64,000 nt of DNA from Patescibacteria group bacterium (GCA_041662745.1 JBAZRV010000002.1:149785-213784), one strand, 5' to 3'. Positions 8,282 to 49,375 are shown, counted from the stretch's first letter. A program made the numbers and translations. The notes: a model not told the origin generated them from the letters alone.

Positions 8282-8479
8282 AAAAGAATTTGCCGCCAAA
8301 TCAATAAATTTTCAAACTCTGAATTATTTGAAAATTTATTGAGATGATTTTTAGTAAAAAATCATTGAAAAACTGGAAATTGTCAAAGTTCAGAATTCGG
8401 GCTTAATTTTTGGGGGAAAATCAGTGCCGTCTGCGACGGCCCGAAAATGCGTTCGAGCTATGTCCATTATCCTCCACCA
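8282..8479 (+). repeat. AT-rich non-coding repeat family, copy A (~200 bp), ending in CCACCA
   Basis: It shares AAAAGAATTTGCCGCCAAATC…CATTGAAAAACTGGAAATTG…hairpin…AAAATGCGTTCGAGCTAT with copies at 48447-48645 and 49256-49375. Confidence 0.75.
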
Positions 8480-8488
8480 ATATATCTT

Positions 8489-9238
8489 ATGATTATGCCA
8501 AATATTTTATGGTCAATTTCGGCCGTAGCTGTTGTCAGCCTGCTGTCGTTCTCCGGAGCGCTCAGCTTGTTTCTTAACGAAAAGTGGCTGAACAAAGCTT
8601 TGATTTATTTTGTCTCCTTCGCGGCCGGTTCCATGATCGGCGCGTCCTTTTTCCATTTATTGCCCGAAGCCTTAGAAACAATTCCTTCATTAGAGGTTTT
8701 TATCGCCGTTTTAGTCGGTTTCTCGCTTTTCTTCGTCTTGGAAAGATTCTTGCGTTGGCATCATTGCCATAATGGGAAATGCGAAACTCATAATCATTTG
8801 GGCTGGCTGAATTTGATCGGCGACGGTTTTCACAATGCGATTGACGGCATGGTCATCTTTGCCTCCTTTTTGGGCGGTCCGGTTTTGGGCATACCGGTTA
8901 CTTTATCCATAATCCTTCATGAAATTCCGCAGGAATTGGGAGATTTCGGGGTTTTACTATATTCCGGATTTACCAAAAAGAAGGCTTTATTTTATAATTT
9001 GTTTTCCGCCTGCATGGCCTTTGTCGGCGTGTTGCTAGGTTGGATGTTTTATCAACAAAGCGAACTGGTTTCCGCTTTACTTCTGCCTTTTGCCGCCGGC
9101 GGTTTTATTTATATCGCTTCCTCGGATTTGATTCCCGAATTGCATAAGGATAGGAATTTGACCCGCGCTGTTTTATCTTATATTTTGTTTGTTTCGGCTT
9201 TAGTTTTCATGTATTTTATGAAAGTGTGGTTTGAATAG
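8489..9238 (+). CDS. ZIP-family metal (zinc) transporter, ZupT-like
   Basis: The HEIPQELGDFGVLL signature and multiple TM helices. The track ORF starts at 8447 inside the repeat. The ATG at 8489 (MIMPNILWS) is the more plausible start. Confidence 0.8.
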   Translation: MIMPNILWSISAVAVVSLLSFSGALSLFLNEKWLNKALIYFVSFAAGSMIGASFFHLLPEALETIPSLEVFIAVLVGFSLFFVLERFLRWHHCHNGKCETHNHLGWLNLIGDGFHNAIDGMVIFASFLGGPVLGIPVTLSIILHEIPQELGDFGVLLYSGFTKKKALFYNLFSACMAFVGVLLGWMFYQQSELVSALLLPFAAGGFIYIASSDLIPELHKDRNLTRAVLSYILFVSALVFMYFMKVWFE

Positions 9239-9303
9239 ATTAGCTGTTAATTATTTCTTTCCGCCTGTCGGCAGGGTTAGCGTTAAAATATTATCTGGAA
9301 ATT

Positions 9304-10377
9304 ATGAAAAAAATCATATATCTAATCGTTTTTCTGTCAGCGTTTTGGCCGGCTTTGGCATTAGCTCAGTATTCGCCTGTCGGCGATAATCAGAATATTT
9401 ATTATTATTCCGCCACTTGCCCGCATTGTCTTAATGTCCACGAATTTTTTGATCAGTATGATATTTTAAAAAAATATAACATCATAGAGAAAGAGGTGTC
9501 GCAGAATCCCAAAAACGCCAAGGAGTTTTATGATTTATGCGTGGCTAAGAGCGTGCCGCCCGAGGATATTGGCGTACCTTACTTGCATTTTGAGGGTCAG
9601 TGCCTGTCCGGCGATCAGCCGATCATTGATTTTTTTAAAGCTAAATTGGGACTGATGGAGGAAAGCCAGCCGCCGAACGGCGGTCCGGCAACAGGCAAGA
9701 CAGATAACGGCTTGACGATCGGGGCGGTAACCGTGGCGGCTTTGGCCGATTCCATCAACCCTTGCGCCTTCTCGGTTATGATTTTCCTAATGTTGTCGCT
9801 TTTGGCTATCGGCGCTAAGAAGAGAATGCTTAAGATCGGCATCACTTATATTATTACTGTCTATATCGTTTACTTGGCGGCCGGATTGGGTTTGCTGGCA
9901 ACCTTTCAATGGCTTAGCGTCATTAGCAAATATATTTTATGGCTGGCGGCCGGACTGGCGATTATTGCCGGACTAATTAACATTAAAGACTTTTTTTGGT
10001 ATGGCCAGGGGATTACTCTGGCTATTCCCGAAGATAAGAAGCCGCTATTGGAAAAATATATCAAGCACGCCTCACTGCCGGCGGCAATTGTTTTGGGGTT
10101 TTTAGTCGCCCTGTTTGAACTGCCTTGCACCGGCGGATTTTATTTGGCTATTCTGGCCTTGTTGGCTCAAGAAATGACTTATTGGAGCGGGGTGGCTTAT
10201 TTGCTGTTTTATAATATTGTTTTTGTGGCGCCGTTATTTATTATTTTAGCCATTGTGTATAAAGGCGTATCGCCGCAACAGTTGGAGAATTGGCGTACGG
10301 CCAAACGCAAATGGCTACGGCTGTTGATGGGATTAGTGTTAGTTGTGTTGGGTTTGAGTTTGATATTTCTATTTTAA
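9304..10377 (+). CDS. Thioredoxin-like domain fused to a CcdA/DsbD-type disulfide-transporter membrane domain
   Basis: N-terminal signal peptide and a CPHC thioredoxin motif (SATCPHCLNVHEFF). C-terminal 6-TM domain with the conserved cysteines of the CcdA/DsbD family (NPCAFSV… and ELPCTGGFY). Confidence 0.7.
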   Translation: MKKIIYLIVFLSAFWPALALAQYSPVGDNQNIYYYSATCPHCLNVHEFFDQYDILKKYNIIEKEVSQNPKNAKEFYDLCVAKSVPPEDIGVPYLHFEGQCLSGDQPIIDFFKAKLGLMEESQPPNGGPATGKTDNGLTIGAVTVAALADSINPCAFSVMIFLMLSLLAIGAKKRMLKIGITYIITVYIVYLAAGLGLLATFQWLSVISKYILWLAAGLAIIAGLINIKDFFWYGQGITLAIPEDKKPLLEKYIKHASLPAAIVLGFLVALFELPCTGGFYLAILALLAQEMTYWSGVAYLLFYNIVFVAPLFIILAIVYKGVSPQQLENWRTAKRKWLRLLMGLVLVVLGLSLIFLF

Positions 10378-10473
10378 AATTCTTTTTGATAAATATTGCC
10401 CACCTTAGTATTGGTTAAGGTGGGTTTATTTTGTTTAAAATTAGGTATTATTTATTGATTGTGGATAAACCCC

Positions 10474-10502
10474 TTGACAAAATATTAATATCGTGAGATA
10501 AT
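10474..10502 (+). promoter_or_regulatory. Sigma-70-like promoter upstream of the DGR target operon
   Basis: TTGACA at 10474-10479, a 17-bp spacer, and GATAAT at 10497-10502. A hairpin-containing 5' UTR and RBS GGAGA follow. Confidence 0.5.
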
Positions 10503-10586
10503 CTATGCAGTACGTTACATCTGGCAGGCCTTAGGCCGGAGAATAGTTCTCCGGTAGGAGGTAAGCCGCAACATGGGAGAAAGACC

Positions 10587-11273
10587 ATGAAAAAGAAGAG
10601 TGAGTTCTTGAGTGCCCTGGGTGTTATGTGGGAGATTTGGAAATCGCTGACGGACGAAATTTTGTCTTTAGGCGGCGATGACGAGGCGATTTGCCTTATT
10701 AAGGCGAATAATGATCTGCGAAGGCAAATGGCCGAATTGGTAATGGCTAAAGCGCGTGACATCAAAGACGCCGCCAAGCAAATCGTCTCGCCGTATCTGA
10801 CGTCTGTCCATGACCTCGTCATTGACTTCAGTCAGGATCTCGGGCAGATGATTGCCGCCGGCAAGTATGACTGGACCAACTCCGACATTACCGCCGAGCA
10901 TTTTCCTCTTAATGGAGCGGGTAAGCGGAAGGTCCGAGTCGAGTTGCTTCACTTCAATCAGTATTTCAAAAATGGCGATGAAGTGATTGCCAAACTGAAA
11001 GAAGTCAATAAGTGGCTGGCCCAGCAAGGAGCGAACTATCGCTATCGTTTCTCTCGCATTGAAGAGTTTTTGGCTTTGGGCGTGGTCCAACCCGGTCTGC
11101 AACGGCAATTTCCCATTGCCGCTCTGGGCTCAATTTGGCACCGTGCCGGCCTCCGCGACTTCGCTTACCTCTACGGGTTTGGTGCGGAGCGCGACCTGCG
11201 CCTGCGCTGTCTTGAGTTTGACTTCGGCGGCCCTTGGCGGTTCGCTGTTGTCCGCGAGCATGCCTGCCGGTAG
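10587..11273 (+). CDS. DGR target (variable) protein 1. The C-terminal ~41 codons form variable repeat VR1. The C-terminus ends …WRFAVVREHACR, reminiscent of C-type-lectin-fold DGR targets.
   Basis: Its C-terminal 123 bp match the template repeat, with substitutions only at TR adenines. It is paralogous to the downstream gene over the C-terminal ~130 aa and differs at the N-terminus. Confidence 0.8.
   Translation: MKKKSEFLSALGVMWEIWKSLTDEILSLGGDDEAICLIKANNDLRRQMAELVMAKARDIKDAAKQIVSPYLTSVHDLVIDFSQDLGQMIAAGKYDWTNSDITAEHFPLNGAGKRKVRVELLHFNQYFKNGDEVIAKLKEVNKWLAQQGANYRYRFSRIEEFLALGVVQPGLQRQFPIAALGSIWHRAGLRDFAYLYGFGAERDLRLRCLEFDFGGPWRFAVVREHACR
11133..11255 (+). repeat. DGR variable repeat VR1
   Basis: Aligned by eye to TR (12216-12339). 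About 22 mismatches, all at positions where TR has A (e.g. TR AAC codons correspond to VR CTC, TTT, GGC and so on). Three further non-A mismatches lie only in the last ~12 bp. Confidence 0.85.
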
Positions 11274-11284
11274 GCAGGCATGTT
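11257..11284 (+). other. IMH-like GC-rich segment and hairpin (CATGCCTGCC-GGTA-GGCAGGCATG) downstream of VR1. Probable DGR target-recognition/cruciform element.
   Basis: A perfect 10-bp stem with a 4-nt loop immediately 3' of VR1. The same ~60 bp (GTTGTCCGCGAGCATGCCTGCCGGTAGGCAGGCATGTTACCTTGATTCCTTGAACCTTGAC) follows VR2. It is absent after TR. Confidence 0.75.
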
Positions 11285-11333
11285 ACCTTGATTCCTTGAA
11301 CCTTGACACCAAAATCGGAAAAAGGAGGACATC

Positions 11334-11945
11334 ATGAGAACTGTAAGTAAAACCGGAAACAAAAAAGTCAGAACTGGAACTATCTCCGCCATCACTGGCG
11401 CGATAATCTGCCAAGGCGGAAAAGCCAAGGACTTGACTGCGATTGTCAGAAATGATGAATTGCTCAAACAATTGGCCACGACCATTATCGAACTGTCCAA
11501 AAAGATCATTCAAGTCATTGTTGACTGCACCATGTCGCTCGGCGATATGATCGACGCCGGCAAGTATGACTGGGTGAACTCGAACATCAACGCCAACAAC
11601 TTCCCGATCAGCAGGAAGGGTAAGAAGGTGGTCAGCATTGAACTCTGGCATCCCAACAGGTATTTTAATAACGGCGATGAAGTGATTGCCGAGCTGAAAA
11701 AAACTAAACCCGGCTATCGTTTTACTCAGATTGAAGAACTCCTGGCCTTAGGCGCGGTCCGACCCGATCTGCAACGGCAATTTCCCATTGCCGCTCTGGG
11801 CTCAATTTGGCACCCTGCCGGCGACCGCGACTTCGCTTTCCTCGACAGGCATGATGCGGAGCGCAACCTGTTCCTGGACTATCTTGAGCGTGACTTCAGC
11901 GACCGTTGGCGCTTTGCGGTTGTCCGCGAGCATGCCTGCCGGTAG
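11334..11945 (+). CDS. DGR target (variable) protein 2 (paralog of target 1). The C-terminal portion is VR2.
   Basis: The conserved segment GDMIDAGKYDW…WRFAVVREHACR is shared with target 1. Its C-terminal 122 bp match TR with A-specific differences only. Confidence 0.8.
   Translation: MRTVSKTGNKKVRTGTISAITGAIICQGGKAKDLTAIVRNDELLKQLATTIIELSKKIIQVIVDCTMSLGDMIDAGKYDWVNSNINANNFPISRKGKKVVSIELWHPNRYFNNGDEVIAELKKTKPGYRFTQIEELLALGAVRPDLQRQFPIAALGSIWHPAGDRDFAFLDRHDAERNLFLDYLERDFSDRWRFAVVREHACR
11805..11926 (+). repeat. DGR variable repeat VR2
   Basis: It differs from TR at about 17 positions, all TR adenines. The 3' end (TTGGCGCTTTGCGGTTGTCCGC) is identical to TR. Confidence 0.85.
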
Positions 11946-11956
11946 GCAGGCATGTT
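11929..11956 (+). other. IMH-like segment and hairpin downstream of VR2 (second copy)
   Basis: Identical to the 11257-11284 element. Confidence 0.75.
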
Positions 11957-11991
11957 ACCTTGATTCCTTGAACCTTGACCCCTTGAATTTT

Positions 11992-12030
11992 CCGCGCGAT
12001 GACCATAGTTATCGCGCGGCTTTTATTTTA
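11992..12030 (+). terminator. Rho-independent terminator after the target operon
   Basis: Stem CCGCGCGAT / ATCGCGCGG with a 10-nt loop, followed by TTTTATTTT. Confidence 0.6.
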
Positions 12031-12215
12031 TCTAATTTTTTACTATAATAGAGCCAAGGGTTAATACTCCCGCGGCCACGGTTTCGGGATACCCGCAAAA
12101 TAAACAAGATTGCTCGGCGTCTGATGTTGGCGGGTTTAAAGACCCCGAATAAAATACAGCCGGAAGATACGGCCTGGCTGTTCAACCGGCAGTGGCTACA
12201 GATGGCGTCAGACGA

Positions 12216-12339
12216 ATTTTGGCACCATGCCGGCAACCGCAACTTCGCTTACCTCAACAGGAATGATGCGAAGCGCAACCTGAACCTGAACTATCTTGAG
12301 AATGACTTCAACGACAATTGGCGCTTTGCGGTTGTCCGC
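12216..12339 (+). repeat. DGR template repeat (TR)
   Basis: Adenine-rich (Asn-codon-rich if translated: …AGNRNFAYLNRNDAKRNLNLNYLENDFNDNWRFAVV). It matches VR1 and VR2 except at A positions. It is followed by divergent sequence (TATCAATTTTG) instead of the IMH plus hairpin. A -10-like TATAAT sits at 12044-12049 upstream. Confidence 0.85.
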
Positions 12340-12772
12340 TATCAATTTTGTTTTCCGTCCTCGCTGTTGGCGGGGATGTTTTTTCCAAACCGATTTTCCA
12401 CGCATAGGCCAACCGTCCGATTTCCTCAATTTTAAGCGCCAAATCGCGGAATTTATTATCATTAAATAGCTTCATTTCCCAGCACAGCCGCAAATAAAAT
12501 TTCAGCAGATCGATTTTTTTTATTGATTTTATTGCCGGTTTTAATTTTTTGTCTTTCGGCAGATATTGGGCGGTGGCCAGTATTTCCAATAGTTCCAGAA
12601 ATATCTGATCCAGGCGGATGCCCAAGGTAAAGCGAGATGTTTTGGGAAAATTTTTTAACCAATCATGCCAAAGTTTGTAGGCAGCGATGGTTTTGCCCAG
12701 AACCAGTAAATTTCCCGTCGGGGGGGGGGATTTAAAGGATGAATTATGAGAAATAAGATCAGATTGAGTCAT
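12308..12772 (-). CDS. Avd-like accessory variability determinant (four-helix-bundle, 23S rRNA-IVS protein family)
   Basis: AAYKLWHDWLKNFPKTSRFTLGIRLDQIFLELLEILATAQ…LALKIEEIGRLAYAWKIGLE resembles the DGR Avd/IVS four-helix-bundle family. It is encoded on the opposite strand to RT. Its 3' end overlaps TR by ~30 bp and its 5' end overlaps the RT start by 27 bp. Confidence 0.6.
   Translation of the reverse strand: MTQSDLISHNSSFKSPPPTGNLLVLGKTIAAYKLWHDWLKNFPKTSRFTLGIRLDQIFLELLEILATAQYLPKDKKLKPAIKSIKKIDLLKFYLRLCWEMKLFNDNKFRDLALKIEEIGRLAYAWKIGLEKTSPPTARTENKIDSGQPQSANCR
12720..12729. repeat. Homopolymeric G10 (C10 on the minus strand) tract
   Basis: CGGGGGGGGGGA at 12719-12730. It encodes PPP in the avd N-terminus and lies 17-26 bp upstream of the RT start codon, adjacent to its RBS AAAGGA. 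Confidence 0.8.
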
Positions 12773-13804
12773 AGTTTTGACGAGATTATTTGTCTTGATA
12801 ATTTATTGGCGGCCTGGCGGGAATTCGTCCGTGGCAAAAGAGACAAGAAAGACGTGCAAGAATTCCAGTGGCAACTGATGGATAATCTTACAGTGCTTCA
12901 TTGGAATTTGGCAAGCGGCGATTATTGCCATGGCGGCTATCAGGCCTTTAAGATTTGTGATCCCAAATCGCGGCAAATCCATAAGGCGTCGGTTCGGGAC
13001 AGATTAGTCCATCATGCGATTTATCGGATTTTGTATCCGTTCTTTGATCGGACTTTCATCGCCGATTCTTATTCCTGCCGGCTGGGCAAGGGCACGCATA
13101 GGGCCTTGGCTCGGTTCAGTGAATTCGCTTACTCCGCCAGTCGGAACAATACCCGCACTTGCTGGGTTTTGAAGGGCGATATCAGGAAGTTTTTTGCCAA
13201 CATTAATCATGGGATATTGAAAGAGATTTTGGCCGAGTATATTCTAGATAAAAAGATTTTGGGGTTATTGGATGAAGTGATTGACAGCTTTCACTGTGTT
13301 AATGATAACCTGGATTCCTGCTTTCGCAGGAATGACAAGGGGAAGGATGAGGATGTCAGTGGTAGTAGAGGTCTGCCATTAGGCAATCTGACTTCGCAAC
13401 TTTTAGTTAATATTTACATGAATAGATTCGATCAATTTGTTAAGCATAAATTACAAGTCAAGTATTATATCCGCTATGCTGATGATTTCGTGATAATATC
13501 TAATGACAAAGGAGATCTAATTCGATTATTGGAGTTGATTAGCAATTATTTGAAACAAGAACTGAAATTGGAGCTTCATGATGATAAAATTTCCATTCGC
13601 ACTCTTAGTTCAAGCATTGATTTCTTGGGCTGGATTAATTTTCCCCGTCATCGTGTTTTACGGACAAAAACTAAAAGGAGGATGTTTAGGAGATTGCGGG
13701 ATAATTTTAGGTCAGAAGCGGTTAATTCGTATATCGGCCTGCTAAGTCATGGCAATGCTTATGGATTGCAAAAAAAGATTGCTAAATTAGCTGATTTTTG
13801 TTAG
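12746..13804 (+). CDS. DGR reverse transcriptase
   Basis: N-terminal FDEIICLDNLLAAWREFVRGKR. SVRDRLVHHAIYRIL. A catalytic IRYADDFVII (YADD) motif. RGLPLGNLTSQLLVNIYMN. 352 aa, typical of DGR RTs. Located adjacent to TR and avd. Confidence 0.9.
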   Translation: MRNKIRLSHSFDEIICLDNLLAAWREFVRGKRDKKDVQEFQWQLMDNLTVLHWNLASGDYCHGGYQAFKICDPKSRQIHKASVRDRLVHHAIYRILYPFFDRTFIADSYSCRLGKGTHRALARFSEFAYSASRNNTRTCWVLKGDIRKFFANINHGILKEILAEYILDKKILGLLDEVIDSFHCVNDNLDSCFRRNDKGKDEDVSGSRGLPLGNLTSQLLVNIYMNRFDQFVKHKLQVKYYIRYADDFVIISNDKGDLIRLLELISNYLKQELKLELHDDKISIRTLSSSIDFLGWINFPRHRVLRTKTKRRMFRRLRDNFRSEAVNSYIGLLSHGNAYGLQKKIAKLADFC

Positions 13805-13834
13805 GATACCAGTATAATTTATGCGCAGAATCTT

Positions 13835-14572
13835 ATGTCTTTTTTGGATAAAATTCTAAAATCCTCCGGCAATACCTTATACTATCCCGGCTGTCTGACC
13901 AAATACGTAGCCAAGGATATTTTTGATAATTACAAAAAACTGCTGGAAATGTGCGGCGAGGATTTTATCATTTTGCCGGACAAGGAAGTTTGTTGCGGTT
14001 CGCCGGCCATTAATGCCGGCTTTAAGGCTGAGGCCAAATCTTTAGTCGGGAAAAATCTAGAATTATTCAAACAGTATAATATCAAAAAAATCATTACCGG
14101 CTGTCCGGCCTGCTATCGCGTGTTCAGCCATGAATATCCCAAAATTCTATCAGATTCTTGGGGTATTGAGGTGGAACACATGACCACCTATCTGCTGGAA
14201 AAGTTAAAGTCCGGCAAACTTAAATTGCCAGAAGTTAAAATCAAAGCCGCCTATCACGATCCCTGCCATTTGGGCCGGCATAGCCGGATTTATGAGGAAC
14301 CGCGAGAGTTGCTCAGGGCCATAGGCGTAGACTTGCAAGAAATGGCGTTGAACCGCGAATATGCTTTCTGTTGCGGCGCGGGCGGGGGGGTGCAATCCAA
14401 TCATAAGGAGTTGGCGGAAAAGATCGCCACCGAGAGGGTGAGCCAAGCCGTGGCTACGACCGCCGAATACCTGGTAACGCCTTGTCCCATGTGCGCTTAT
14501 AATTTGCGCAATGGTACGGGCGATAAGATTAAAGTCGTGGAATTTTCGGAAGCGCTATTGGGTAAAATATAA
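13835..14572 (+). CDS. Cysteine-rich (CCG-domain) Fe-S oxidoreductase subunit, LutA/GlcF-C-terminal/HdrB-like
   Basis: Two CCG-type cysteine clusters (YYPGC…CCGSPAINAGF…TGCPACY and PCH…FCCGAGGG…PCPMC). Confidence 0.65.
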   Translation: MSFLDKILKSSGNTLYYPGCLTKYVAKDIFDNYKKLLEMCGEDFIILPDKEVCCGSPAINAGFKAEAKSLVGKNLELFKQYNIKKIITGCPACYRVFSHEYPKILSDSWGIEVEHMTTYLLEKLKSGKLKLPEVKIKAAYHDPCHLGRHSRIYEEPRELLRAIGVDLQEMALNREYAFCCGAGGGVQSNHKELAEKIATERVSQAVATTAEYLVTPCPMCAYNLRNGTGDKIKVVEFSEALLGKI

Positions 14573-14574
14573 TT

Positions 14575-15726
14575 ATGAATCGTGATTTTGTTTACAATTA
14601 TCTTAGCAAGCGAGTTGCCGCCTTAAACCGCGAAGATCAGGAAAAGCTGCGCGATGAGATTTTTGAATTGAAAAAAAAGGCGGCAGCCAGGTTACCCGAG
14701 TTGGTGGAAAAGGCTAAAAATAAATTGGAGCAAGCCGGCGCCAAAGTTTATGTAGTCAAAGATAATGCCGCCGCCACGGAGCTGATTAAAGAATTAGCCG
14801 GTTCCAGTTTGGCGGTTAAAAGCAAATCCAACACCTTGGATAAATTGGGATTAAAAGGAATTTTAGGGGATAAATTGACTGAAACGGATTTGGGCGCCTA
14901 TATCGTCAGCCAAATCGGCGGCGACTCGGATCACCCGGTTTTGCCGGCCATTGATTTGTCAGCCGAAGAAATCGTTGCCAAATTCAAAGAACGGGGAATT
15001 GATCTGCCGGCCAAGCCCAAGGAATTGGTGGATAAATTAAAAAAAATCATTAAGGAAAAGATTTTATCCGCTGAAGTCGGATTGACCGGCGCTAACGCCG
15101 TTACCGCCGACGGGCAAATCATGCTGCTGGAGAACGAAGGCAATATTTCATTGGTCACTCGTTTACCCGGGTTGCATATTGCCGTCGCCAAGGTGGAAAA
15201 AGTCGTTGCTTCTTACGAGGATGCGATTAAAATCGCCAAGGCCGCCGCCGTTTGGGGGACCGGCCAGAGTTGGACGTCTTACGTGTCTTTTATCGGCGGA
15301 CCGTCGCAAACCGCAGATATTGAGAATGAGTTGGTTACTGGAGTGCAGGGAGCGCAGAAGTTAATCCTGATTTTAATTGAAGGACAATCCTATCAAAAAA
15401 TTGGCACGGAGTTGGAGAGTATGCTATACTGTATACATTGCGGAGCTTGTTATAATCTTTGCCCGTCCTGGAATCTGACCTTGACCATGCCTAAAGTCAG
15501 CAGTGATCAGACCAATTTTACTTGCACTCTGTGTCAGAATTGCACCCTTAATTGCCCGGCCAGGATAGATTGGCAGAATATTACCAGGATTTATCGTGAG
15601 AAATTTACCGCCGAAGGCAAGATTAGCGCAGTTAATGCCAAAATGCTTAAGAATTTAAGGCAATATGGCAACCCTTTCGGCGAAGTTTCAGAGGGCGTCG
15701 CGCCGGATGAATTATTTTGCTGTTAA
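14575..15726 (+). CDS. LUD-domain protein with a C-terminal 4Fe-4S ferredoxin-type domain (LutB-like)
   Basis: CIHCGACYNLCP and CTLCQNCTLNCP ferredoxin motifs, with an N-terminal LUD/DUF162-like region. Adjacent to the LutA-like gene. Confidence 0.6.
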   Translation: MNRDFVYNYLSKRVAALNREDQEKLRDEIFELKKKAAARLPELVEKAKNKLEQAGAKVYVVKDNAAATELIKELAGSSLAVKSKSNTLDKLGLKGILGDKLTETDLGAYIVSQIGGDSDHPVLPAIDLSAEEIVAKFKERGIDLPAKPKELVDKLKKIIKEKILSAEVGLTGANAVTADGQIMLLENEGNISLVTRLPGLHIAVAKVEKVVASYEDAIKIAKAAAVWGTGQSWTSYVSFIGGPSQTADIENELVTGVQGAQKLILILIEGQSYQKIGTELESMLYCIHCGACYNLCPSWNLTLTMPKVSSDQTNFTCTLCQNCTLNCPARIDWQNITRIYREKFTAEGKISAVNAKMLKNLRQYGNPFGEVSEGVAPDELFCC

Positions 15727-15765
15727 AATAGATAAATAAATTCACCCTGTTAAATAATTCGCCTA

Positions 15766-15783
15766 GGCGAATTAAAAATCTAT
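15766..15783. promoter_or_regulatory. Perfect 18-bp palindrome AATTCGCCTAGGCGAATT in the promoter region. Candidate operator.
   Basis: Located between 14-bp inverted repeats (ACCCTGTTAAATAA at 15749 and TTATTTAACAGGGT at 15857). A TATAAT-like element lies at about 15795, upstream of the 15877 gene. Confidence 0.35.
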
Positions 15784-15876
15784 TGTTATAATAAGCAGAT
15801 GGGATACGGGTGAAATCTCAATAAAATTACTTCTTAACTCAATTTTAATTAATTTTTATTTAACAGGGTAAACAAT

Positions 15877-16800: not shown

Positions 16801-16813
16801 TTAAAAAAGTTTT

Positions 16814-17565: not shown

Positions 17566-17566
17566 T

Positions 17567-27077: not shown

Positions 27078-27212
27078 AAAATTAAGTGTTTATTGGTTTA
27101 AATATACCATTATTAAGCGTTTAAAGCAAATATTGCAGTTTAATCTTTTATTTTTTTTGTTTAAATTTAGATGTTATTTATTGTTCAGCTGATATTTCTG
27201 TGGATAAATGCA

Positions 27213-27241
27213 TTGACAAAATAATTAATGTATGATATAAT
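27213..27241 (+). promoter_or_regulatory. Sigma-70-like promoter upstream of the helicase gene
   Basis: TTGACA at 27213-27218, a 17-bp spacer, and TATAAT at 27236-27241. A ~200-nt leader with several hairpins follows. Confidence 0.5.
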
Positions 27242-27453
27242 TATATATTGAATTTATGTTTAATTTGAACGGTTTTTGACTGTTTTTAACCGGGTTTTAA
27301 ATGGTTGAATTAAGCCGGTTAAGGCCAGAGTCAACCGCTCAACTGAAAGTTAGCGGCGTACCTAAAAATTGAATATTTTCCGGAGAGGAAAACTTGACGA
27401 CCAAACGGTCGTTCTCTCCATTGTCGGAGAGAACTCAAGTTCCCTCATGATTA

Positions 27454-42856: not shown

Positions 42857-42902
42857 TTCAGACGCATGCAAAGCGCCGGAATAATACGGCTAATAGAAAA
42901 TT

Positions 42903-43676
42903 ATGAGGAATTTAACACGTGCACCAATTGATTTTATTAAACTGGAAAGTTCAGAGATGCCGTTTAACCCGAAACTGAATATTTTTAATGAAAGAGGTTT
43001 TGGCACGATACCGGAAGATGAACCCGATTCTGATTCAGTCGTGAGGCTTTTGCCTGGTTGGGATAGGGATCGGGATAATTATTTTGAATTGGCAGATCTC
43101 AAGGACAATCTTAGCGAAGCTCAGAAGGTTTTCCAACAATTAAGGGATGATTACCATATCAGGATTATTCCGTTTAAGTTTGCAATCGGCAAAGACAGTG
43201 AGGGTAAATTGGCCGCTTATGTTATCGCTAAAAAAGCGGAAGGCATTAACCTGGATTCCTTGAGCAAGGAGGACCTTTCCCCTATAGAAGCGGAAACTTT
43301 AAGGCAAGACTTGATAGAAACATGGTCGGGATTAATTGATTATTATTTTGACTGCCTATCTTCTGATCAAGAATTATTTTGGGATGTTTTTCCGGCCAAA
43401 CAATACGTCTATGGGCGTGTGGGCAAAGAAGAAGAAAAACACCCCTATATGATTGATATTGAAATTCGCATTACTAGGGGGCAACAGTATTTGTTCCGGC
43501 TGGCGTTAAGCTGTTTGGCTGAGGACCCTGAAGCAATTGGGGACAGTTTAAGTATGGATTTAAGCCCGATAAAGGAAAAGCTCAAGTTAAAAATTTCTGA
43601 ATTTCTGAAGCAGCCTAATCTGGTGGCGGATGCGAGTTTGAAGAATAATATGCGGGATTATTTGAATGCGTTATAA
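42903..43676 (+). CDS. Hypothetical protein
   Basis: 257 aa, acidic, with no family recognised. It contains the recurrent 14-mer TAACCTGGATTCCT at 43246. Confidence 0.4.
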   Translation: MRNLTRAPIDFIKLESSEMPFNPKLNIFNERGFGTIPEDEPDSDSVVRLLPGWDRDRDNYFELADLKDNLSEAQKVFQQLRDDYHIRIIPFKFAIGKDSEGKLAAYVIAKKAEGINLDSLSKEDLSPIEAETLRQDLIETWSGLIDYYFDCLSSDQELFWDVFPAKQYVYGRVGKEEEKHPYMIDIEIRITRGQQYLFRLALSCLAEDPEAIGDSLSMDLSPIKEKLKLKISEFLKQPNLVADASLKNNMRDYLNAL

Positions 43677-43849
43677 AAGCTATGCGAATTGCCATAATAC
43701 CCTGCAGTTTAAAGCGAAAGTTTATCGGAGTTTACCGCTGTTGACAAAATATTTTCAGTATGGTAATATGAGCTGTCAGTCAGCCGTCCATTAAAACCAA
43801 TTAACATAAACGATGTAAAAAGACCGGGCTAAGCTCAAGGAGGCAAATA

Positions 43850-44296
43850 ATGCCTGAAAAACAAGTAATACCTAAACAAACCATTTTTGATTTGATGGAT
43901 TTGCAGGATCTTTCTGGTTGGCATTTAGTCAGATGTTATGAAGTCCTTGGCAATATTGGCGAACCTTCATCATGCTTGGCATGCGATTTTGATTCTCGGG
44001 GATTTTATAATGATCCGATTTTGGCTTCAATCGCCAGTTATGGCATCGGCTGGTGGGGCGGCGATGGGGTTGTCAGGGAGGTCCTTGTTTTGACTCAAGA
44101 TGACCGGAAGGGCTTTATTCCGAATACTGCAAACCTTGTGTGGTTCCATAGGAAGAGTCCTGTTTTCTGCAGTTGTCCCGCCTTGATAGAAATTTATTCA
44201 GAGGAAAAGATATCGCGATTGCGCGATCATCTAATGAAGCATGATTACCTTAAATGTAAACTAACACCACGGGAGAAAGAGTTGTTGGACTTGTAG
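43850..44296 (+). CDS. Hypothetical protein
   Basis: 148 aa, Cys-containing (CLACDF…CSCP). A promoter-like TTGACA…TGGTAATAT lies upstream at about 43742. No family recognised. Confidence 0.35.
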   Translation: MPEKQVIPKQTIFDLMDLQDLSGWHLVRCYEVLGNIGEPSSCLACDFDSRGFYNDPILASIASYGIGWWGGDGVVREVLVLTQDDRKGFIPNTANLVWFHRKSPVFCSCPALIEIYSEEKISRLRDHLMKHDYLKCKLTPREKELLDL

Positions 44297-44388
44297 GGAT
44301 AATTATTATCCGATATGTTGTACATTAAAACGCCTCTCGGGCAAGCCGTGAAGCGTTTTTTATTTGATTTGCTGCGTTGTTTTTCTGT

Positions 44389-44685
44389 TTATTTGCCCAG
44401 GCCCGGGATATTGAGTCCGCCCATTTGCGACATCTTATTGGCCATGACGCGCTGGACTTTTTTGACGGCATCATTAACCGCTTCTTTGACGGCTGATTCT
44501 AACTTGGCTTTGTCGCCGACGATTTCCTGGTCAATAACGACAGCTTTGACTTCCTGATTGCCATCCATGGAAATTTTCACTTTGCCCCAGCCACCTTGGC
44601 CTTCAATCGTTTCTTCGGCCAAGGCTTTTTTAATGGTATTGGCTTGATTCTTTAAATCTTGAATCGCTTTGATTTTTGAGAACAT
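44389..44685 (-). CDS. ybaB: Nucleoid-associated protein YbaB/EbfC
   Basis: MFSKIKAIQDLKNQANTIKKALAEE…GGWGKVKISMDGNQEVKAVVIDQEIV. The start at MFSK (44685) is preferred over 44706. Confidence 0.8.
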   Translation of the reverse strand: MFSKIKAIQDLKNQANTIKKALAEETIEGQGGWGKVKISMDGNQEVKAVVIDQEIVGDKAKLESAVKEAVNDAVKKVQRVMANKMSQMGGLNIPGLGK

Positions 44686-44790
44686 ATAGTTTTGATTAAG
44701 AGTCAAAAGCCATTAAAGTCAAGGGTTTTAAATTTATCGGATCCGCCTGTCGGAACAGGCCTTTGACTTTGCAGGCTTTCTGGCCGGTTA

Positions 44791-46170
44791 TTAATTATAG
44801 CTTCTGTCTAAATTTTTAAATGATACGGTATTGCCTTCAAAATAAAGGTGCACCAGACCGGTGGGGCCGTTTCTGTGTTTGGCGACATGGATTTCCGCCG
44901 AATGCTTTTCTTCTTCGGTTAAGGAATTAACATCAAAATTCCTGTCGGAGGCCTTGCGGTAAATAAACATAACCACATCGGCATCCTGCTCAATGGAACC
45001 GGATTCGCGCAGGTGGGACAGCTTGGGGATGGCCGGCTTGTTCATTTCCACAGCGCGGGACAGCTGGGAGAGCGCCAGGACGGGAATGTTAAGTTCGCGC
45101 GCCAAACCTTTAAGGGCGCGGGAGATTTCGGCGATTTCCTGTACGCGGCTTTCCGATGATTGGCGGCTGCCCGAACCTTCCATTAGTTGCAAATAATCCA
45201 AAATAATCAAGTCCAGTCCGTGTTCAATCTGCAGGCGTCGCGCCTTGGTGCGGAGTTCCATGACATTGGTGTTGGCAAAGTCGTCAATAAAAATATTGCT
45301 TTCCGACAGCTCGCTCATGGCGTGGCCGATGCGGGGAAAATCTTCGCCGGCTTCGGACAGGCGTCCGGTGCGCATTTTCCACATATCCACTCCCGCCTCA
45401 CCAGAAATCAAACGATCAACTAATTGTTCCTTGGACATTTCCAGCGAGAAGATGCCTACGGATTTTTTGTGGCGGATGGCGGCGTTGCGGGCGATATCCA
45501 GGGCTAAAGCGGTTTTGCCGACTGAGGGGCGGGCGGCCAAGATGACTAAATCGGATCTCTGCAACCCTCCCAGGACATTATCCATTTCAGTAAAGCCGGT
45601 GGGCAAGCCGCGCAGTTTGCCTTTCTCGCGATGCAATTCGTCAATGCGATCAAAGGCGCCGGTCAGAACGTCCTTGATGTGAGTGAATTTTTCTTTTAAG
45701 AATTTTTGCGATACCGCAAAAACCGATTGCTCGGATTTATCCAGGATTTCATTGACTTCCTTGTCTTCCTGATAGCCCAAATCCAAAATATTGGAAGCGG
45801 CGGCAATCAATCGGCGCAGGGTGGCTTTTTTCTGGATAATCTGCGCATAAGATACGACATGCGCCGCTGAAGGCACTTGGTTGGTCAGGGTAACCAGATA
45901 ACTGCGTCCGCCGACCAGATCGATTTTTCCCAATTCGTTCAGCCGGGAGCTTAAGCCCAAGATGTCAATCGGATCTTTACGCTCAAACAATTCCAGGATA
46001 ACCGAATAAATAATGCCGTGCGCCGTCTGATAAAAATCCTCGGCGGTGATGATGTCGGCGATTTTGATGATGGCATCCTTGTCAATCAATAAAGCGCCCA
46101 GAAGCGATTGTTCGGCTTCCAGGTTTTGCGGCGGCAGTTTGCGCAAGGAATTGTCTGACATATTCGTCAC
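44791..46170 (-). CDS. dnaB: Replicative DNA helicase DnaB
   Basis: N-terminal LPPQNLEAEQSLLGALL. Walker A ILAARPSVGKTALAL. RecA-like C-terminal domain. Confidence 0.9.
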   Translation of the reverse strand: MTNMSDNSLRKLPPQNLEAEQSLLGALLIDKDAIIKIADIITAEDFYQTAHGIIYSVILELFERKDPIDILGLSSRLNELGKIDLVGGRSYLVTLTNQVPSAAHVVSYAQIIQKKATLRRLIAAASNILDLGYQEDKEVNEILDKSEQSVFAVSQKFLKEKFTHIKDVLTGAFDRIDELHREKGKLRGLPTGFTEMDNVLGGLQRSDLVILAARPSVGKTALALDIARNAAIRHKKSVGIFSLEMSKEQLVDRLISGEAGVDMWKMRTGRLSEAGEDFPRIGHAMSELSESNIFIDDFANTNVMELRTKARRLQIEHGLDLIILDYLQLMEGSGSRQSSESRVQEIAEISRALKGLARELNIPVLALSQLSRAVEMNKPAIPKLSHLRESGSIEQDADVVMFIYRKASDRNFDVNSLTEEEKHSAEIHVAKHRNGPTGLVHLYFEGNTVSFKNLDRSYN

Positions 46171-46413
46171 CTTTTAGGGTATTCAAGTCCCTTACATTTT
46201 ACCTTAATTGTCCCGCCTTGGCAAACCACCGGTTTTAGAGAGTTTTGGACAGTTTATGCACACGCCAAAGGGTATAACTTTATCGGATTGGGGGCTTGTT
46301 TTTTTTGTATGCCGGTAAACCCCGTACGGCGTTCGGACTTGGGGCTTCATTGGCGCAGGGTTTATTGTTTTGTCAAGAGCAATGTTTACTTTGATTTATT
46401 TCTCTATGGGTAC

Positions 46414-46442
46414 TTGCCAAAAGAAAAATTTTACTGTATAAT
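46414..46442 (+). promoter_or_regulatory. Sigma-70-like promoter upstream of tRNA-Lys
   Basis: TTGCCA at 46414-46419, a 17-bp spacer, and TATAAT at 46437-46442. Confidence 0.5.
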
Positions 46443-46512
46443 ATTAAATAGTTTCATAAAATGTCTTAATTTGCGTTTGGGACAAGCAAAACAATTGAAT
46501 GTCAAATATTAC

Positions 46513-46588
46513 GCGCCTATAGCTCAGTCGGTAGAGCAACAGCCTTTTAAGCTGATGGTCGCTGGTTCGAGTCCAGCTGGGCGCACCA
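46513..46588 (+). tRNA. tRNA-Lys (anticodon UUU), CCA encoded
   Basis: Acceptor GCGCCTA/TGGGCGC. D-arm AGCTCAGTCGGTAGAGC. Anticodon loop CTTTTAA. T-arm GCTGG-TTCGAGT-CCAGC. Discriminator A, then CCA. Confidence 0.9.
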
Positions 46589-46602
46589 GAAAGGAATAGT
46601 CA

Positions 46603-46690
46603 AATTTTTCCGCTTCCCGTCGCCGATTTCGGCGACCAAATCATACGGAATTTCATAATCAAAATGCAATTGGCGGTTTTGTCTGAATAT
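46603..46690 (+). repeat. Divergent copy (~85% identical) of the 100-bp tRNA-3'-flank element
   Basis: GCGACCAAATCATACGGAATTT…CAATTGGCGGTTTTG is shared with 5835-5886. It contains the perfect hairpin GTCGCCGATTTCGGCGAC. Confidence 0.75.
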
Positions 46691-46883
46691 TAATTCAGGT
46701 AAAAGAAAATTTTTATGTTTATTTGACTGCAGAAATTATCATGATTTCTGTTTTTTTGTTCTATTTTGGTGCATATGATTGACATTTTGGTTGATATTTG
46801 CTAAAATTTGGTATTCCCAATGTGAGGGATGTTCTTTGAAATGCCTAGTGCTATCAGCATAACTCAAACGAAAGGAGAGTTTT

Positions 46884-48371
46884 ATGCGTATTGCAGCGAT
46901 TTCCGTTGGTTTGCAAGGGCATGGGCATAACCTCGCCTTTGCTCCAAACGCCATTGTTACAGTGGCAGCCGCTGTTCAGCGGGTTTTTGGAGATAAAGTC
47001 CAGATACGTGTTTTCGACGAAGTTTTGTTTGGTCACGATCAGCTCAAAGAGCTATTGAGTGTGTTTACTCCGAATGTTCTTTTTGTGAGTGTTCCGGTAA
47101 CTGGTTATTATTATTCAGCACTGGACATTTACAATTGGGCAAAAGAGCATGCCATTCCAGTGTTGACTGGAGGGTACCACTTTAATATTCCAGACGTCGA
47201 TTACCATGGGAATCAAGTTTATCCTGGAGTAATCGCCCGTCTAGCCACAGAGCGAGAAGTGTTTGTCTGCTATGCTGACGGGGAATCAACAGCAGTCGGA
47301 TTTGTTGAACACCTCTTTAATCCTAATCATCGCAAGCTCGCTTCAGTTCCAAATCTCTGTTATGTAGAGGCGGGTCAGCTCATTGTCACGCCACGGCAAG
47401 AAAATACCCTTGGTACGCAAGCATACCCAAATTTGCCACTGGAGTCGTTCGATCCCCGTGCTTATTGGGGCTCGCTATCAAAGAGTGATGTCCATGCCAG
47501 CGGAAAGGACTTAATTGGTAACGTTCCAATTGGACGTACAATCGTCGGAGCCAAGATTGTGGAGGGGTGCACTTATCGCCGAGTGAGGTTGAGCCAAGGA
47601 AAGGAAGCATGCTCTTACTGCACATTGACTAGCCCCTGCCACGCGTCCTCAGGTCAGAGTTTTTGGCGTATTACTCAAGAAATGTATGACTATGTCGAGA
47701 GTATATCTTGGTCTGGAGATCAGGGAGTTCGTTGCTATCAAATTGGAGATGATATGGGTAGCGATATCCCTCTCATTAAATCAATTTGGGAATCGCGACC
47801 ACCATGGGCTAACGAGGTTCCTCTCGGTCATCGTGTATATGCTTGGCATGTTCTTGGAGAAGACCAAGCAAGAATGCTATACGACATTGGTGTTCGATGG
47901 ATTTATCTCGGTGGCGATGGGAAAAGGGGGTTTACGAACGAGTGGTCGGTAAGACATCCACTTGTTCGGACTCTGGAGAATTGCCGTAAGCACGGCCTAC
48001 GAGCAAGCATTGGCTTTGTTCTCGGTCAACGAAATCAGGATTGGCATGATATTGAGAAATGGTCCAAATTCAGTCAGCGATTGGCCGCAGAATATGGGGA
48101 TTCTCTCATTATCGTCGACGGCTGGGTGAATGTGCTTGCTCCTGGTTCTCCGGATTGGGCGGTTTTGTGTCAGTATGAACCAAGTTTTGGGAATACGGAT
48201 TGCCCTGATTTGGAGAAGGCCCGCATGGTTTTCTGGCAACAGTGCACAAAACTCTGCGATCATCAGAACCCCGAAGATATCCGTCGGTTGCTGTATGAAT
48301 GGGTGCCACAGTTTGAAAACGACATGAATAGGCATCCTGGCGTCCAGCGTAGTTTCATGTTGCGACCGTAA
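46884..48371 (+). CDS. Hypothetical protein with an N-terminal B12-binding-like Rossmann domain. Possibly radical SAM-related but with a non-canonical Cys motif.
   Basis: The N-terminal …VLFVSVPVTGYYYSALDIYNWAKEHAIPVLTGGYHFN pattern resembles B12-binding domains of B12-dependent radical SAM enzymes. The cysteine cluster is CTYRRVRLSQGKEACSYC (Cx14CxxC), not CxxxCxxC. Codon usage and GC differ from neighbouring genes. Confidence 0.4.
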   Translation: MRIAAISVGLQGHGHNLAFAPNAIVTVAAAVQRVFGDKVQIRVFDEVLFGHDQLKELLSVFTPNVLFVSVPVTGYYYSALDIYNWAKEHAIPVLTGGYHFNIPDVDYHGNQVYPGVIARLATEREVFVCYADGESTAVGFVEHLFNPNHRKLASVPNLCYVEAGQLIVTPRQENTLGTQAYPNLPLESFDPRAYWGSLSKSDVHASGKDLIGNVPIGRTIVGAKIVEGCTYRRVRLSQGKEACSYCTLTSPCHASSGQSFWRITQEMYDYVESISWSGDQGVRCYQIGDDMGSDIPLIKSIWESRPPWANEVPLGHRVYAWHVLGEDQARMLYDIGVRWIYLGGDGKRGFTNEWSVRHPLVRTLENCRKHGLRASIGFVLGQRNQDWHDIEKWSKFSQRLAAEYGDSLIIVDGWVNVLAPGSPDWAVLCQYEPSFGNTDCPDLEKARMVFWQQCTKLCDHQNPEDIRRLLYEWVPQFENDMNRHPGVQRSFMLRP

Positions 48372-48446
48372 CGGGAAGTGTTTTTATTTAGTGGTGTTGT
48401 GCCTCGCATGACACCACTTTTCTTTTTTATTAATTTTTCAAAGAGC

Positions 48447-48645
48447 TAAAAAAATTTGCCGCCAAATCCAGTAAATTTTTCAATAAATCAGCTCTTGAAA
48501 AATTTACTGAAATGAGTTATGATTAACTCATTGAAAAACTGGAAATTGCCGTAAATCAGAATTAGGATTGGGTTTCGTCGGGAGGAAAATCTGCGTCCGC
48601 CGTTGGCGGACAGCCAAAATGCGTTCGAGCTATCTTTAAGATACA
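48447..48645 (+). repeat. AT-rich non-coding repeat family, copy B. It ends in a copy of the tRNA-Lys 3' end.
   Basis: AAAAAAATTTGCCGCCAAATCC…CATTGAAAAACTGGAAATTGCC…GTCCGCCGTTGGCGGAC hairpin…AAAATGCGTTCGAGCTAT, followed by the 20-bp direct repeat. Confidence 0.75.
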
Positions 48646-48684
48646 GCACCAGAAAGGAATAGTCATTCTTTACAATAAAAGGAG

Positions 48685-49128
48685 ATGGTCATGGCTCAAA
48701 TTAAGGTGATAGCTTTTGATGTTTACGGAACCATTCTCTGTTCTGATGACCATGAAAATATTTTGCCGCCACGGTCGGGTTTTACGGAATTCATTTTGCA
48801 TGCTAAGGATTTGAGAATTAAAACCGTTACCAGCTCTGATTCCGATTTGACTAACATGCAATTGGATTTAGCCGCCACCTTTAACGGCGTAGCACCTTTT
48901 GGTTTAGAAATATTTGACGGTTTTTTCAGGCTTGCCATGTACCCCAAGGTTTACCAACAGATTTTGCGATTTTTTGGCATTAAAGATGAGGAATTATTGG
49001 TAATCGGCGATGATTATGCTAAGGATTTATCGCAGGCGCCTTTGCAGGCCCATAAAATCTTAGTTCCGAACTATAAGATTGTCGCCGATGGATTTAGTTT
49101 TTCTCAAGTAGTTATTTCCGACCTTTAA
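48685..49128 (+). CDS. Small HAD-superfamily hydrolase (haloacid-dehalogenase-like motif I DxYGT)
   Basis: IAFDVYGTIL (motif I) and VIGDDYAKDL (motif IV). Only 147 aa. Confidence 0.55.
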   Translation: MVMAQIKVIAFDVYGTILCSDDHENILPPRSGFTEFILHAKDLRIKTVTSSDSDLTNMQLDLAATFNGVAPFGLEIFDGFFRLAMYPKVYQQILRFFGIKDEELLVIGDDYAKDLSQAPLQAHKILVPNYKIVADGFSFSQVVISDL

Positions 49129-49255
49129 CATTCGCCCTCACAAAGCGGATGTTTTTTTGTTATTGATCTTTGACACAACAACCAAGGAAAGGGAAAAGCC
49201 ATGAAAACTATCGCTATCATGCGGGGCTTTTCTTTTTCTTAAATTTTCAAAAGTT

Positions 49256-49375
49256 AAAAGAATTTGCCGCCAAACCCAATAAATTTTTCAAAAGATAGCC
49301 CTATCAGGATTGGATTTCGTCGGGAAGAAAATCTGTGTTCGCTTGTAGCGGACAGCCAAAATGCGTATTTTAAAA
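49256..49375 (+). repeat. AT-rich non-coding repeat family, copy C (internally deleted variant)
   Basis: AAAAGAATTTGCCGCCAAACCCAATAAATTTTTCAAAAG…CAGGATTGGATTTCGTCGGGAAGAAAATCTG…GCGGACAGCCAAAATGCG. It lacks the central ~65 bp present in copies A and B. Confidence 0.7.

Follow-up and report, generated by a model that had tools for sequence, protein, structure and literature searches.

Tn4451 and Tn4453 are small elements moved by a large serine recombinase, TnpX, which targets GA dinucleotides; in these elements, as in insertion sequence (IS) circle junctions, the joined element ends make a promoter that takes its -35 box from one end and its -10 box from the other. Hin, Gin, and Cin are small serine invertases (~190 aa, with a C-terminal helix-turn-helix) that use ~26-bp inverted sites and a Fis-bound enhancer. 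In the sites of serine integrases, a shared distal motif is recognized at attP positions 16-24 and attB positions 11-19, a shift of 5 bp (Rutherford et al., PMC3783163). The tycheposons of Prochlorococcus mostly encode tyrosine recombinases, with a large serine recombinase in 27 of 937, and many of them carry replication genes (bioRxiv 10.1101/2020.12.28.424599). Here we analyzed a 64,000-nt stretch of DNA from a Patescibacteria group bacterium (GCA_041662745.1, JBAZRV010000002.1:149785-213784; hereafter the window), in which a family of AT-rich non-coding repeats and a gene for a large serine recombinase, int, are found at tRNA genes. The repeats are, in our judgment, very probably P arms, the attP-type outer ends of small cassettes that are moved by int into the 3' ends of tRNA genes.

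The genomes of Patescibacteria, or bacteria of the candidate phyla radiation (CPR), are tiny, and the ways in which they gain accessory genes are little understood; one recombinase family appears to deliver cargo to their tRNA genes. An earlier note on this DNA had recognized three copies of the repeat (A, B, and C) and an inverted partial copy, and had proposed three origins for them: conserved right ends of small tRNA-targeting integrative elements, passengers resembling miniature inverted-repeat transposable elements (MITEs), or a family of small RNA (sRNA) genes. Only the first of these agrees with the obtained data, as the outer boundary of the copies is conserved and falls at a core that is also present at the tRNA 3' end, and the copies belong to elements that are apparently driven by int.

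Repeat copies and the recombinase gene

The repeats were located by a repeat search of the window and a four-way alignment of the copies, and word counts were compared with shuffled sequence. The search connected positions 8275-8312, 48441-48478, and 49249-49286 with one another, and linked 48561-48624 with 49303-49366, 8359-8400 with 48525-48566, and 8444-8479 with 48616-48651. The string AATTTGCCGCCAAA has exactly four occurrences, and allowing up to two mismatches gave 10 matches versus 2.5 expected; GAAAAACTKGAAATTG, the second half of a 37-nt segment termed the box, has three occurrences versus 0.28 expected. The window repeats far exceed chance.

All three copies reported by the earlier note exist, with bounds that required correction (Table 1): copy A begins at 8277 instead of 8282, copy B ends at 48651 instead of 48645, and copy C covers 49253-49366. 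Its inverted partial copy holds over the same span: an inverted pair links 7400-7505 with 8374-8479 (106 nt, 95% complementary), and the true homology covers 7400-7494. The internal deletion of copy C is also real, at ~68 nt rather than the ~65 nt first given; the copy retains the first half of the box and is further truncated after AAAATGCGT, which removes the half-site and the core. The resemblance to tRNA ends proved exact in both copies for which it had been claimed. The terminal TCCACCA of copy A is identical to the end of tRNA-Val, and the terminal GCACCA of copy B, together with the following GAAAGGAATAGTCA, forms a 20-nt string (48646-48665) that is identical to 46583-46602 at tRNA-Lys. 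The tRNA genes themselves, tRNA-Ala, tRNA-Val(cac), and tRNA-Lys(ttt), were identified by ARAGORN and Rfam.

The repeats are explained by int, a gene that the earlier reader overlooked, along with the inverted attachment site upstream of it and the int-derived start of the repeat. The last nine codons and the stop codon of int are the antisense of tRNA-Val (tail ...NWW TLQDSNL-stop). The product contains the Pfam domains Resolvase (PF00239), Recombinase (PF07508), and Zn_ribbon_recom (PF13408), all above the curated cut-offs, and this set of domains defines it as a large serine recombinase; solved structures match its sequence in the catalytic domain only. The fourth exact copy of the box lies inside int.

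The 3' end of int recurs upstream of the gene. The 100 nt at 5787-5886 are found inverted at 7307-7406 with 100% identity, and another 27 nt of int (5888-5914) recur, inverted and 100% identical, at 7515-7541. At the core, this copy of the int 3' end runs directly into the inverted part-copy, so that a complete P arm-core-b' arm site, termed site 2, is located upstream of int; b' denotes the arm formed by the reverse complement of the int 3' coding end. The site-2 block is also present upstream of int in the loci L001, L004, and L006 and in ~50 other loci, and the leader of the cargo gene that follows it in the window (7542-7598) is similar to the int leader as an inverted repeat. Two further ideas about this block were discarded. 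Flipping of the 235-nt block between its two leader repeats is unsupported, since its orientation is constant in all loci, and a conserved small protein encoded across site 2, a possible directionality factor, is excluded by the open frames found there in 49 of 53 loci, which lie in differing reading frames.

Layout, site geometry, and signs of movement of the element

We detected 7884 int homologues, mostly from Patescibacteria. The two closest loci present the Val layout of the window in other genomic contexts. In L001, int is 92% identical and lies beside tRNA-Val(gac), and the locus carries a full repeat copy that matches copy A with 90% identity over 196 nt (BLASTN, E = 3e-73); in L004, int is 72% identical and lies beside tRNA-Lys. 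A scan of species-representative genomes provided 80 further loci, and 84 loci were assessed for tRNA adjacency. A convergent tRNA gene, representing 13 amino-acid identities, is located within 120 nt of the int 3' end in 72 of the 84 loci and mostly overlaps it. In nearly all loci, the int 3' end is repeated in inverted orientation over ~100 nt, at a distance of 35-60 nt before the start codon; identity within a locus is usually 97-100%. Pairing of the P arms was analyzed in 49 informative loci, which remained of 55 after removal of three that nearly duplicate L001 and three whose upstream sequence was too short. In 42 of the 49, the 90-125 nt of P sequence beside int recur in inverted orientation, over at least 60 nt, at the other end of the cargo, 0.9-8.6 kb away, and the paired copies are at least 91% identical in most of these 42 loci and often 100% identical. 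Across about 160 related loci the layout is fixed: tRNA, core, int bracketed by b arms, core, cargo bracketed by P arms, core, and old tRNA flank. The repeat family is the P arm of this unit.

The accessory genes noticed earlier beside the copies are indeed a general feature, and the cargo is diverse, including methyltransferases, the restriction systems NgoPII, TdeIII, and CfrBI, RmuC, a Na/Ca exchanger, subtilase, CobO, dihydroorotate dehydrogenase, an ABC ATPase, and transporters. No relatives of int were found in IMG/VR viral contigs and the cargo is not phage-like, which speaks against a phage origin. This stereotyped element family is very widespread in Patescibacteria. A complete element with a 5.2-kb cargo segment is also found at tRNA-Ser(gct) in a cultured member of the Bacteroidota, Schleiferia thermophila DSM 21410 (L083; NZ_QPJS01000004.1, 4626-11524); the family is therefore not confined to CPR bacteria, and this strain offers an experimental handle on it.

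Several individual loci depart from the common form. In L004, inverted cores lie 15 nt apart upstream of int (9806-9831, TGGTGC TGTATTTTAAAGATA GCACCA), which looks like a cargo segment shrunk to its two terminal stubs. The int module of L014 (9799-11595) has a tRNA-Ala gene on either side, cgc upstream and tgc downstream, the two being inverted relative to each other, and a further tRNA remnant adjoins int, an arrangement that may reflect a chromosomal inversion or a double junction. In L006 (11462-11751), a 15-nt duplicate of the tRNA-Tyr 3' end at the end of int is followed by ~190 nt of unrelated DNA and then by the real tRNA-Tyr gene; the duplicate is probably a remnant of a different element at the same site. 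Assembly breaks occur in or at the ~100-nt repeats around int in L007, L022, L031, L040, and L088 and in many contigs of 1.7-1.9 kb, and the int-only contigs (~1.7-1.8 kb) suggest several contexts or orientations within one sample. As simple sequence markers, P arms could show where mobile DNA begins and ends in metagenome bins of CPR bacteria and account for contig breaks beside tRNA genes.

The copies are not confined to the window either, as the earlier note had allowed they might be: they are present in other genomes and in metagenomes, with conserved boundaries. JGI metagenomes were searched with a pattern running from box half 2 to the half-site (GAAAAACTKGAAATTG, 55-85 nt, AAATGCGTTCGA), which matched at least 119 stretches, of which 80 were read. 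Int is in its standard place in 18 of these 80, and at least 25 have no int and instead a co-directional tRNA gene 0.5-1.7 kb upstream, followed by a recognizable b' arm in about a dozen cases. The int-less form, tRNA-core-b'-cargo-P-core, is thus common in the census. Of 29 testable stretches, 16 repeat at least 5 nt of the tRNA end downstream of the half-site, 14 of them at the expected core position; most of the other 13 have cores shorter than the 5-nt threshold. Many cores are followed by a b' arm stub, as is the case after copy B, and these stubs indicate stacking of cassettes. The arrays are short, with one to three cassettes, and L158 has three P ends in tandem.

The tRNA-Lys locus of the window is of this frequent type without int. 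Over 102 nt, its b' arm matches the int 3' end of L004 with 99% identity (BLASTN), and the b' arm with its leader is 97% identical (143 nt) to the block upstream of int in L004; no int gene follows. The cargo gene of the first cassette is preceded by a promoter-like site of its own (46779-46807) and followed by a terminator-like hairpin (48390-48418); the encoded 495-aa protein contains a Cys-rich stretch, CSYCTLTSPC. Copies B and C would each mark the far end of a cassette without int, one stacked on the other after tRNA-Lys; this assignment forms part of the overall explanation and shares its high likelihood.

The geometry of the junctions points to the mode of attachment. The three junctions of each locus (tRNA-b', P-b', and P-B', where B' is the old tRNA flank) share only 4-8 nt in ~30 loci, and these cores (GCAC, CCAC, CCGC, GAGC, or CAGC) correspond to tRNA positions 71-74. 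Counted base by base at both window loci and in the related loci examined in this way, the distance from GTTCGA to the core is 23 nt in the P arm versus 18 nt in the tRNA, where the motif belongs to the T-loop; in the census copies, the core follows GTTCGA at the same fixed offset. The best-conserved part of 28 aligned P arms is the core-proximal 30 nt, in which the half-site positions are invariant. When the first two bases of the core are taken as the crossover, GTTCGAAyC falls exactly at the published attP and attB positions. Such mimicry is expected for the attP half-site of a tRNA-targeting serine integrase under the 5-bp rule, and from this geometry we infer that the end of the P arm is such a half-site. 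The attachment logic would provide a rule for specificity toward a class of genes rather than a single site, by combining the universal T-loop, the 5-bp offset, and a crossover at tRNA positions 71-74.

The proposed mechanism follows this geometry. The last ~30 nt of the P arm would act as a recombinase half-site that copies the T-loop and acceptor of the tRNA, with GTTCGA placed 5 bp further from the crossover, and strands would be exchanged within the 4-8-nt core. The b' arm would then supply CA and rebuild the CCA end, so that the tRNA would stay intact, and the P arm would come to lie at the far end of the cargo, adjoining the old downstream flank of the tRNA. Copy A would represent the far end of the int-carrying Val element, and the inverted part-copy would be a piece of the second complete attP-type site directly upstream of int.

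Comparison of int tails suggests that such joining has taken place lately. Tails were compared within a 90% protein cluster in which identity is at least 99.6% over the first 470 residues. After the common ...SLTFSWWC, the proteins continue with PRRELNPHERELIRF, PRKESNPHLKL..., PQKESNLHPGL..., or PGWDSNPHGIYAKTF, all of them tRNA T-arm antisense; a fifth tail of this kind, with WWR, reads AWRESNPRPNA. The five tRNA-antisense tails bear the motifs RELNP, KESNP, KESNL, WDSNP, and RESNP. A sixth tail is the antisense of a P arm (TILKIVRTFF...), and a second int cluster shows the same tail behavior. In L088, and likewise in L029 and L065, int reads through the core into a P arm and on toward the cargo. 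Near-identical recombinases with five tRNA tails and one P-arm tail imply that one lineage was very recently joined to each of these sequences, with the breakpoint at the core, and these alignments indicate that movement of the element is recent.

Every distal P arm begins with GAATTTGCCGCCAAAGAAAAACTTGAAATTGTC, which equals nt 84-120 of the int gene of its own locus. In about half of the loci an insert interrupts this box between nt 102 and 103; the insert folds into two hairpins in every case, and its sequence is unrelated between subfamilies. Among 75 int genes, codon identity at shared residues is 0.90-0.97 for codons 28-40 versus ~0.6 elsewhere; the frozen synonymous sites mean that the box is constrained at the nucleotide level within int too. 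Four further islands of frozen synonymous sites (codons 244-250, 322-333, 412-418, and 442-451) were observed in the same genes and point to additional nucleotide-level elements inside the recombinase gene. Int nt 121-137 and ~158-175 form hairpins with compensatory changes, and the order box, hairpin, spacer, hairpin, GAAATG of the P arm is the order found in int from nt 84 to ~185, so the P arm looks like a paralogue of the int 5' region. A translated-level homology between the P body and int residues 41-85 was considered and dropped, being weak outside the window subfamily, and the layout resemblance alone was kept. Site 2 instead bears reverse complements of int nt 1335-1361 and 138-157. 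The first ~40-110 nt of the arm, which the attachment model does not require, are in our view int-derived and probably regulatory.

At site 2, a predicted sigma-70-like junction promoter spans the core, with its -35 box in b and its -10 box in the P arm, and is directed toward the cargo. It has the same position and the same 17-nt spacer in 21 of 22 loci outside the tRNA-Ser type, and never occurs at the tRNA junction. Two functions considered for the hairpins were set aside. A conserved promoter in the two-hairpin insert is contradicted by the prediction of such a site in copy B only (48495-48523). A role as cargo terminator is unlikely, since in the cassettes of copies B and C a separate terminator-like hairpin follows the cargo gene ahead of the box.

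Table 1. Coordinates of the window features and the roles proposed for them
Feature	Position	Strand	Basis	Details
tRNA-Val(cac), attB-type half-site (B arm)	5717-5793	+	ARAGORN, Rfam	core TCCACCA 5787-5793; T-loop GTTCGA 5770-5775
int, large serine recombinase, 494 aa	5764-7248	-	ORF, Pfam	
b' arm (P'-type half-site plus ~100 nt)	5794-5914	+	inverted repeats	reverse complement of int 3' coding end; ends with 27-nt a' 5888-5914
37-nt box in int	7129-7165	-	exact matches	int nt 84-120, peptide EFAAKEKLEIV
Site 2, complete attP-type site, inverted, between int and cargo gene	7307-7541	+	inverted repeats	b 7307-7399; core TGGTGGA 7400-7406; reverse-complement P arm 7407-7494; int(138-157)-like 20-mer 7495-7514; int(1335-1361) 7515-7541
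Junction promoter, sigma-70-like	7385-7413	+	promoter scan, 11/12 matches	TTGACA-17-GATAAT
Val-element cargo gene, 221 aa	7599-8264	+	ORF; weak Pfam match	PsbP-like protein
Copy A, distal P arm (attR side) of Val element	8277-8479	+	repeat search, alignment	box half 1 8277-8300; two-hairpin insert 8301-8366; box half 2 8367-8384; P body with GC hairpin GCCGTC-TGC-GACGGC; half-site GTTCGA 8451-8456; core TCCACCA 8473-8479
B' flank	8480-9238	+	Pfam Zip	host ZIP transporter gene 8495-9238, begins 15 nt past core; 247-aa product on ENA contig
tRNA-Lys(ttt), B arm of second locus	46513-46588	+	ARAGORN, Rfam	core GCAC(CA) 46583-46588
Lys-type b' arm and int-type leader	46589-46730	+	BLASTN	b' part 46589-46682; no int gene behind
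Lys cassette 1 cargo gene, 495 aa	46884-48371	+	ORF	no Pfam family
Copy B, P arm of Lys cassette 1	48447-48651	+	repeat search, alignment	box split by two-hairpin insert; hairpin GTCCGCC-GTT-GGCGGAC; GTTCGA 48623-48628; core GCACCA 48646-48651
Lys cassette 2	48652-49128	+	Pfam	14-nt b' arm stub GAAAGGAATAGTCA 48652-48665; HAD-like hydrolase gene 48685/48691-49128
Copy C, decayed P arm of Lys cassette 2	49253-49366	+	alignment, repeat search	

Some features of the window lie apart from these elements. The repeat search revealed three copies of TGTGGATAAA...TTGACAAAATA...(TG)ATATAAT (10456-10502, 27199-27266, and, inverted, 53306-53377), each a DnaA-box-like 9-mer directly upstream of a strong sigma-70-type promoter. 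A DnaB-like helicase gene is located at 44791-46170. Direct repeats of 130-270 nt with 82-87% identity, spaced 672 and 412 nt, at 11041-12344 probably encode repeated domains of one gene.

Alternative explanations

Several points weigh against the reading of the repeats as P arms of int-driven cassettes. Neither an empty attB site nor an excised circle was recovered by exact look-up of the flanking SIMPL and ZIP proteins, which gave the same arrangement or a contig too short to tell; excision and integration are for this reason deduced from comparative data only. No recombination directionality factor was found, the minimal elements consisting of int and unrelated cargo only; some large serine recombinases, such as TnpX and Ccr, act without one. 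Loci of the tRNA-Ser-type subfamily lack the junction promoter. Some 50 bp are enough for the attP site of a serine integrase, so recombination alone does not explain the conservation over ~100-200 nt, the int-derived box, or the hairpins. We know of no precedent in classical serine-integrase elements for a permanent inverted attP-type site upstream of int or for near-identical ~100-nt repeats around int, and both point to something more, be it inversion, gene conversion, or autoregulation.

A wider proposal can be put forward tentatively, as a possibility that we do not favor as it stands. Patescibacteria and at least one cultured member of the Bacteroidota may share a serine-recombinase cassette system at tRNA genes that is a functional counterpart of the integron. 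The P arm could be a portable site able to recognize any tRNA through T-loop mimicry, int could be a module that inverts between copies of its own 3' end, and the box with its optional hairpins could be a cis element (an enhancer or regulator) that couples cassettes to the recombinase.

The best-surviving alternative holds that the system is mainly a DNA-inversion switch, in which int, like Hin and Gin, inverts the DNA that lies between the inverted b arms and between the inverted P arms. Inverted repeats of ~100 nt, in most loci 97-100% identical, flank int, and P arms flank the cargo; the int module has the opposite orientation at L088, L029, and L065, many contigs end within the repeat, and the 5' part of the recombinase gene contains a nucleotide-level conserved element reminiscent of the hin/gin enhancer. 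However, orientation is the same in the great majority of loci, and int, with 494 aa, is a large serine recombinase rather than a small invertase. The same int is moreover found at five or more different tRNA genes, which requires transposition or integration, not inversion. In int cluster 3 the last ~12 residues before the core change along with the tail, a pattern that suggests homologous recombination within the repeats rather than site-specific inversion at the core. We consider this explanation unlikely overall, although it deserves more weight than those that follow.

It is less probable still that the repeats are functionless wreckage, namely decayed remnants of the 5' parts of recombinase genes that nested insertions and deletions left behind at tRNA hot spots. 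Such an origin would fit the evident decay of copy C, the b' arm stubs that follow many cores, an arm that starts with int nt 84-120 and shares the layout of int nt 121-~185, and a site-2 block that amounts to a circularly permuted int 3' end with an internal deletion. Yet the same composite with the same boundaries recurs in ~50 int-bearing loci, where int is only 55-70% identical, and in at least 119 metagenome stretches, and paired P arms within a locus are often 100% identical. Relics would also be expected to lose their register with the core, whereas the half-site positions are invariant.

The sRNA genes of the earlier note, whether with their own transcript or as a 3' untranslated region of the cargo, would act on int mRNA through the box, and this we regard as improbable. 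A nucleotide-level function is indeed indicated by the identity of the box to int nt 84-120 with its frozen synonymous sites, the insert always forms two hairpins despite wholly different sequences among subfamilies, the two short GC hairpins of the P body show some compensatory changes, and copy B has a promoter-like site at 48495-48523. This site, however, is not conserved in copy A or in the GC-rich inserts, and roughly one locus in two has no hairpin insert. Because the box runs in the sense of int mRNA, RNA made from that strand would be unable to base-pair with the message. A comparison with Rfam found nothing above the gathering threshold and nothing but noise at E <= 1, and the conserved RNA structure looked for in the alignment of 28 P arms amounted to the two short GC hairpins (weak RNAalifold consensus of -3.96 kcal/mol with 7 pairs). 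The sharp outer boundary at the tRNA-derived core is, finally, a feature of DNA recombination. MITE-like non-autonomous transposons or self-inserting passengers, suggested by short, AT-rich, non-coding repeated copies, by inverted pairs around cargo genes, and by the frequency of int-less copies, are very improbable, because a single copy has neither terminal inverted repeats nor a target-site duplication of its own and is always one end of a larger unit that has a b' arm or an inverted P arm as its other end, and because the three to four copies in 64 kb all lie at two tRNA loci, at a fixed distance and orientation relative to int or tRNA, instead of being scattered as autonomous units.

Comparison with known systems

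The cassettes with P arms at tRNA genes share with the phage-type serine integrases (A118/LI, Bxb1, phiC31) a three-domain recombinase, a very short crossover identity, and an attP half-site in which the distal motif lies 5 bp further out than in attB (PMC3783163). Unlike in those systems, the targets are the 3' ends of many tRNA genes, with the universal T-loop as the shared motif; attP overlaps the int 3' end, and a second, inverted attP-type site is located upstream of int. The element is also small (2-10 kb) and free of phage genes, has conserved arms of 100-200 nt, and shows no directionality factor.

Small cargo elements at tRNA genes, modular cargo, tandem arrays, and integrase-less relatives are features shared with tycheposons, a likeness that is functional only and based on these features, not on sequence relatedness of the integrases. 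The nested inverted repeats, the int-derived box, and the int/tRNA overlap of the present family have not been reported for tycheposons. Tn4451/Tn4453 likewise combine a large serine recombinase, a small element, and a junction promoter; here, in contrast, that promoter faces the cargo and points away from int, is permanent at site 2, and accompanies tRNA targets.

Integrons resemble the family in having cassettes of one to few genes with diverse cargo, a structured and partly palindromic end site, and stacking by the anchoring site, with many cassettes lacking their own recombinase. They differ (IntI tyrosine recombinase, attI, attC) from the serine enzyme, tRNA anchor, own leader or promoter, and arrays of one to three cassettes described here. 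With Hin, Gin, and Cin, the family shares a recombinase gene within a segment bracketed by inverted sites and a conserved element in the 5' coding part, whereas a large serine recombinase, ~100-nt repeats, and movement between tRNA genes set it apart.

No description of this element family was found in the limited collection of literature searched, and no compared system joins a serine recombinase, T-loop mimicry, int/tRNA overlap, and nested inverted attachment sites. By analogy, the chemistry and site geometry of the family appear to be those of serine integrases, and its life style resembles that of tycheposons and integron cassettes.

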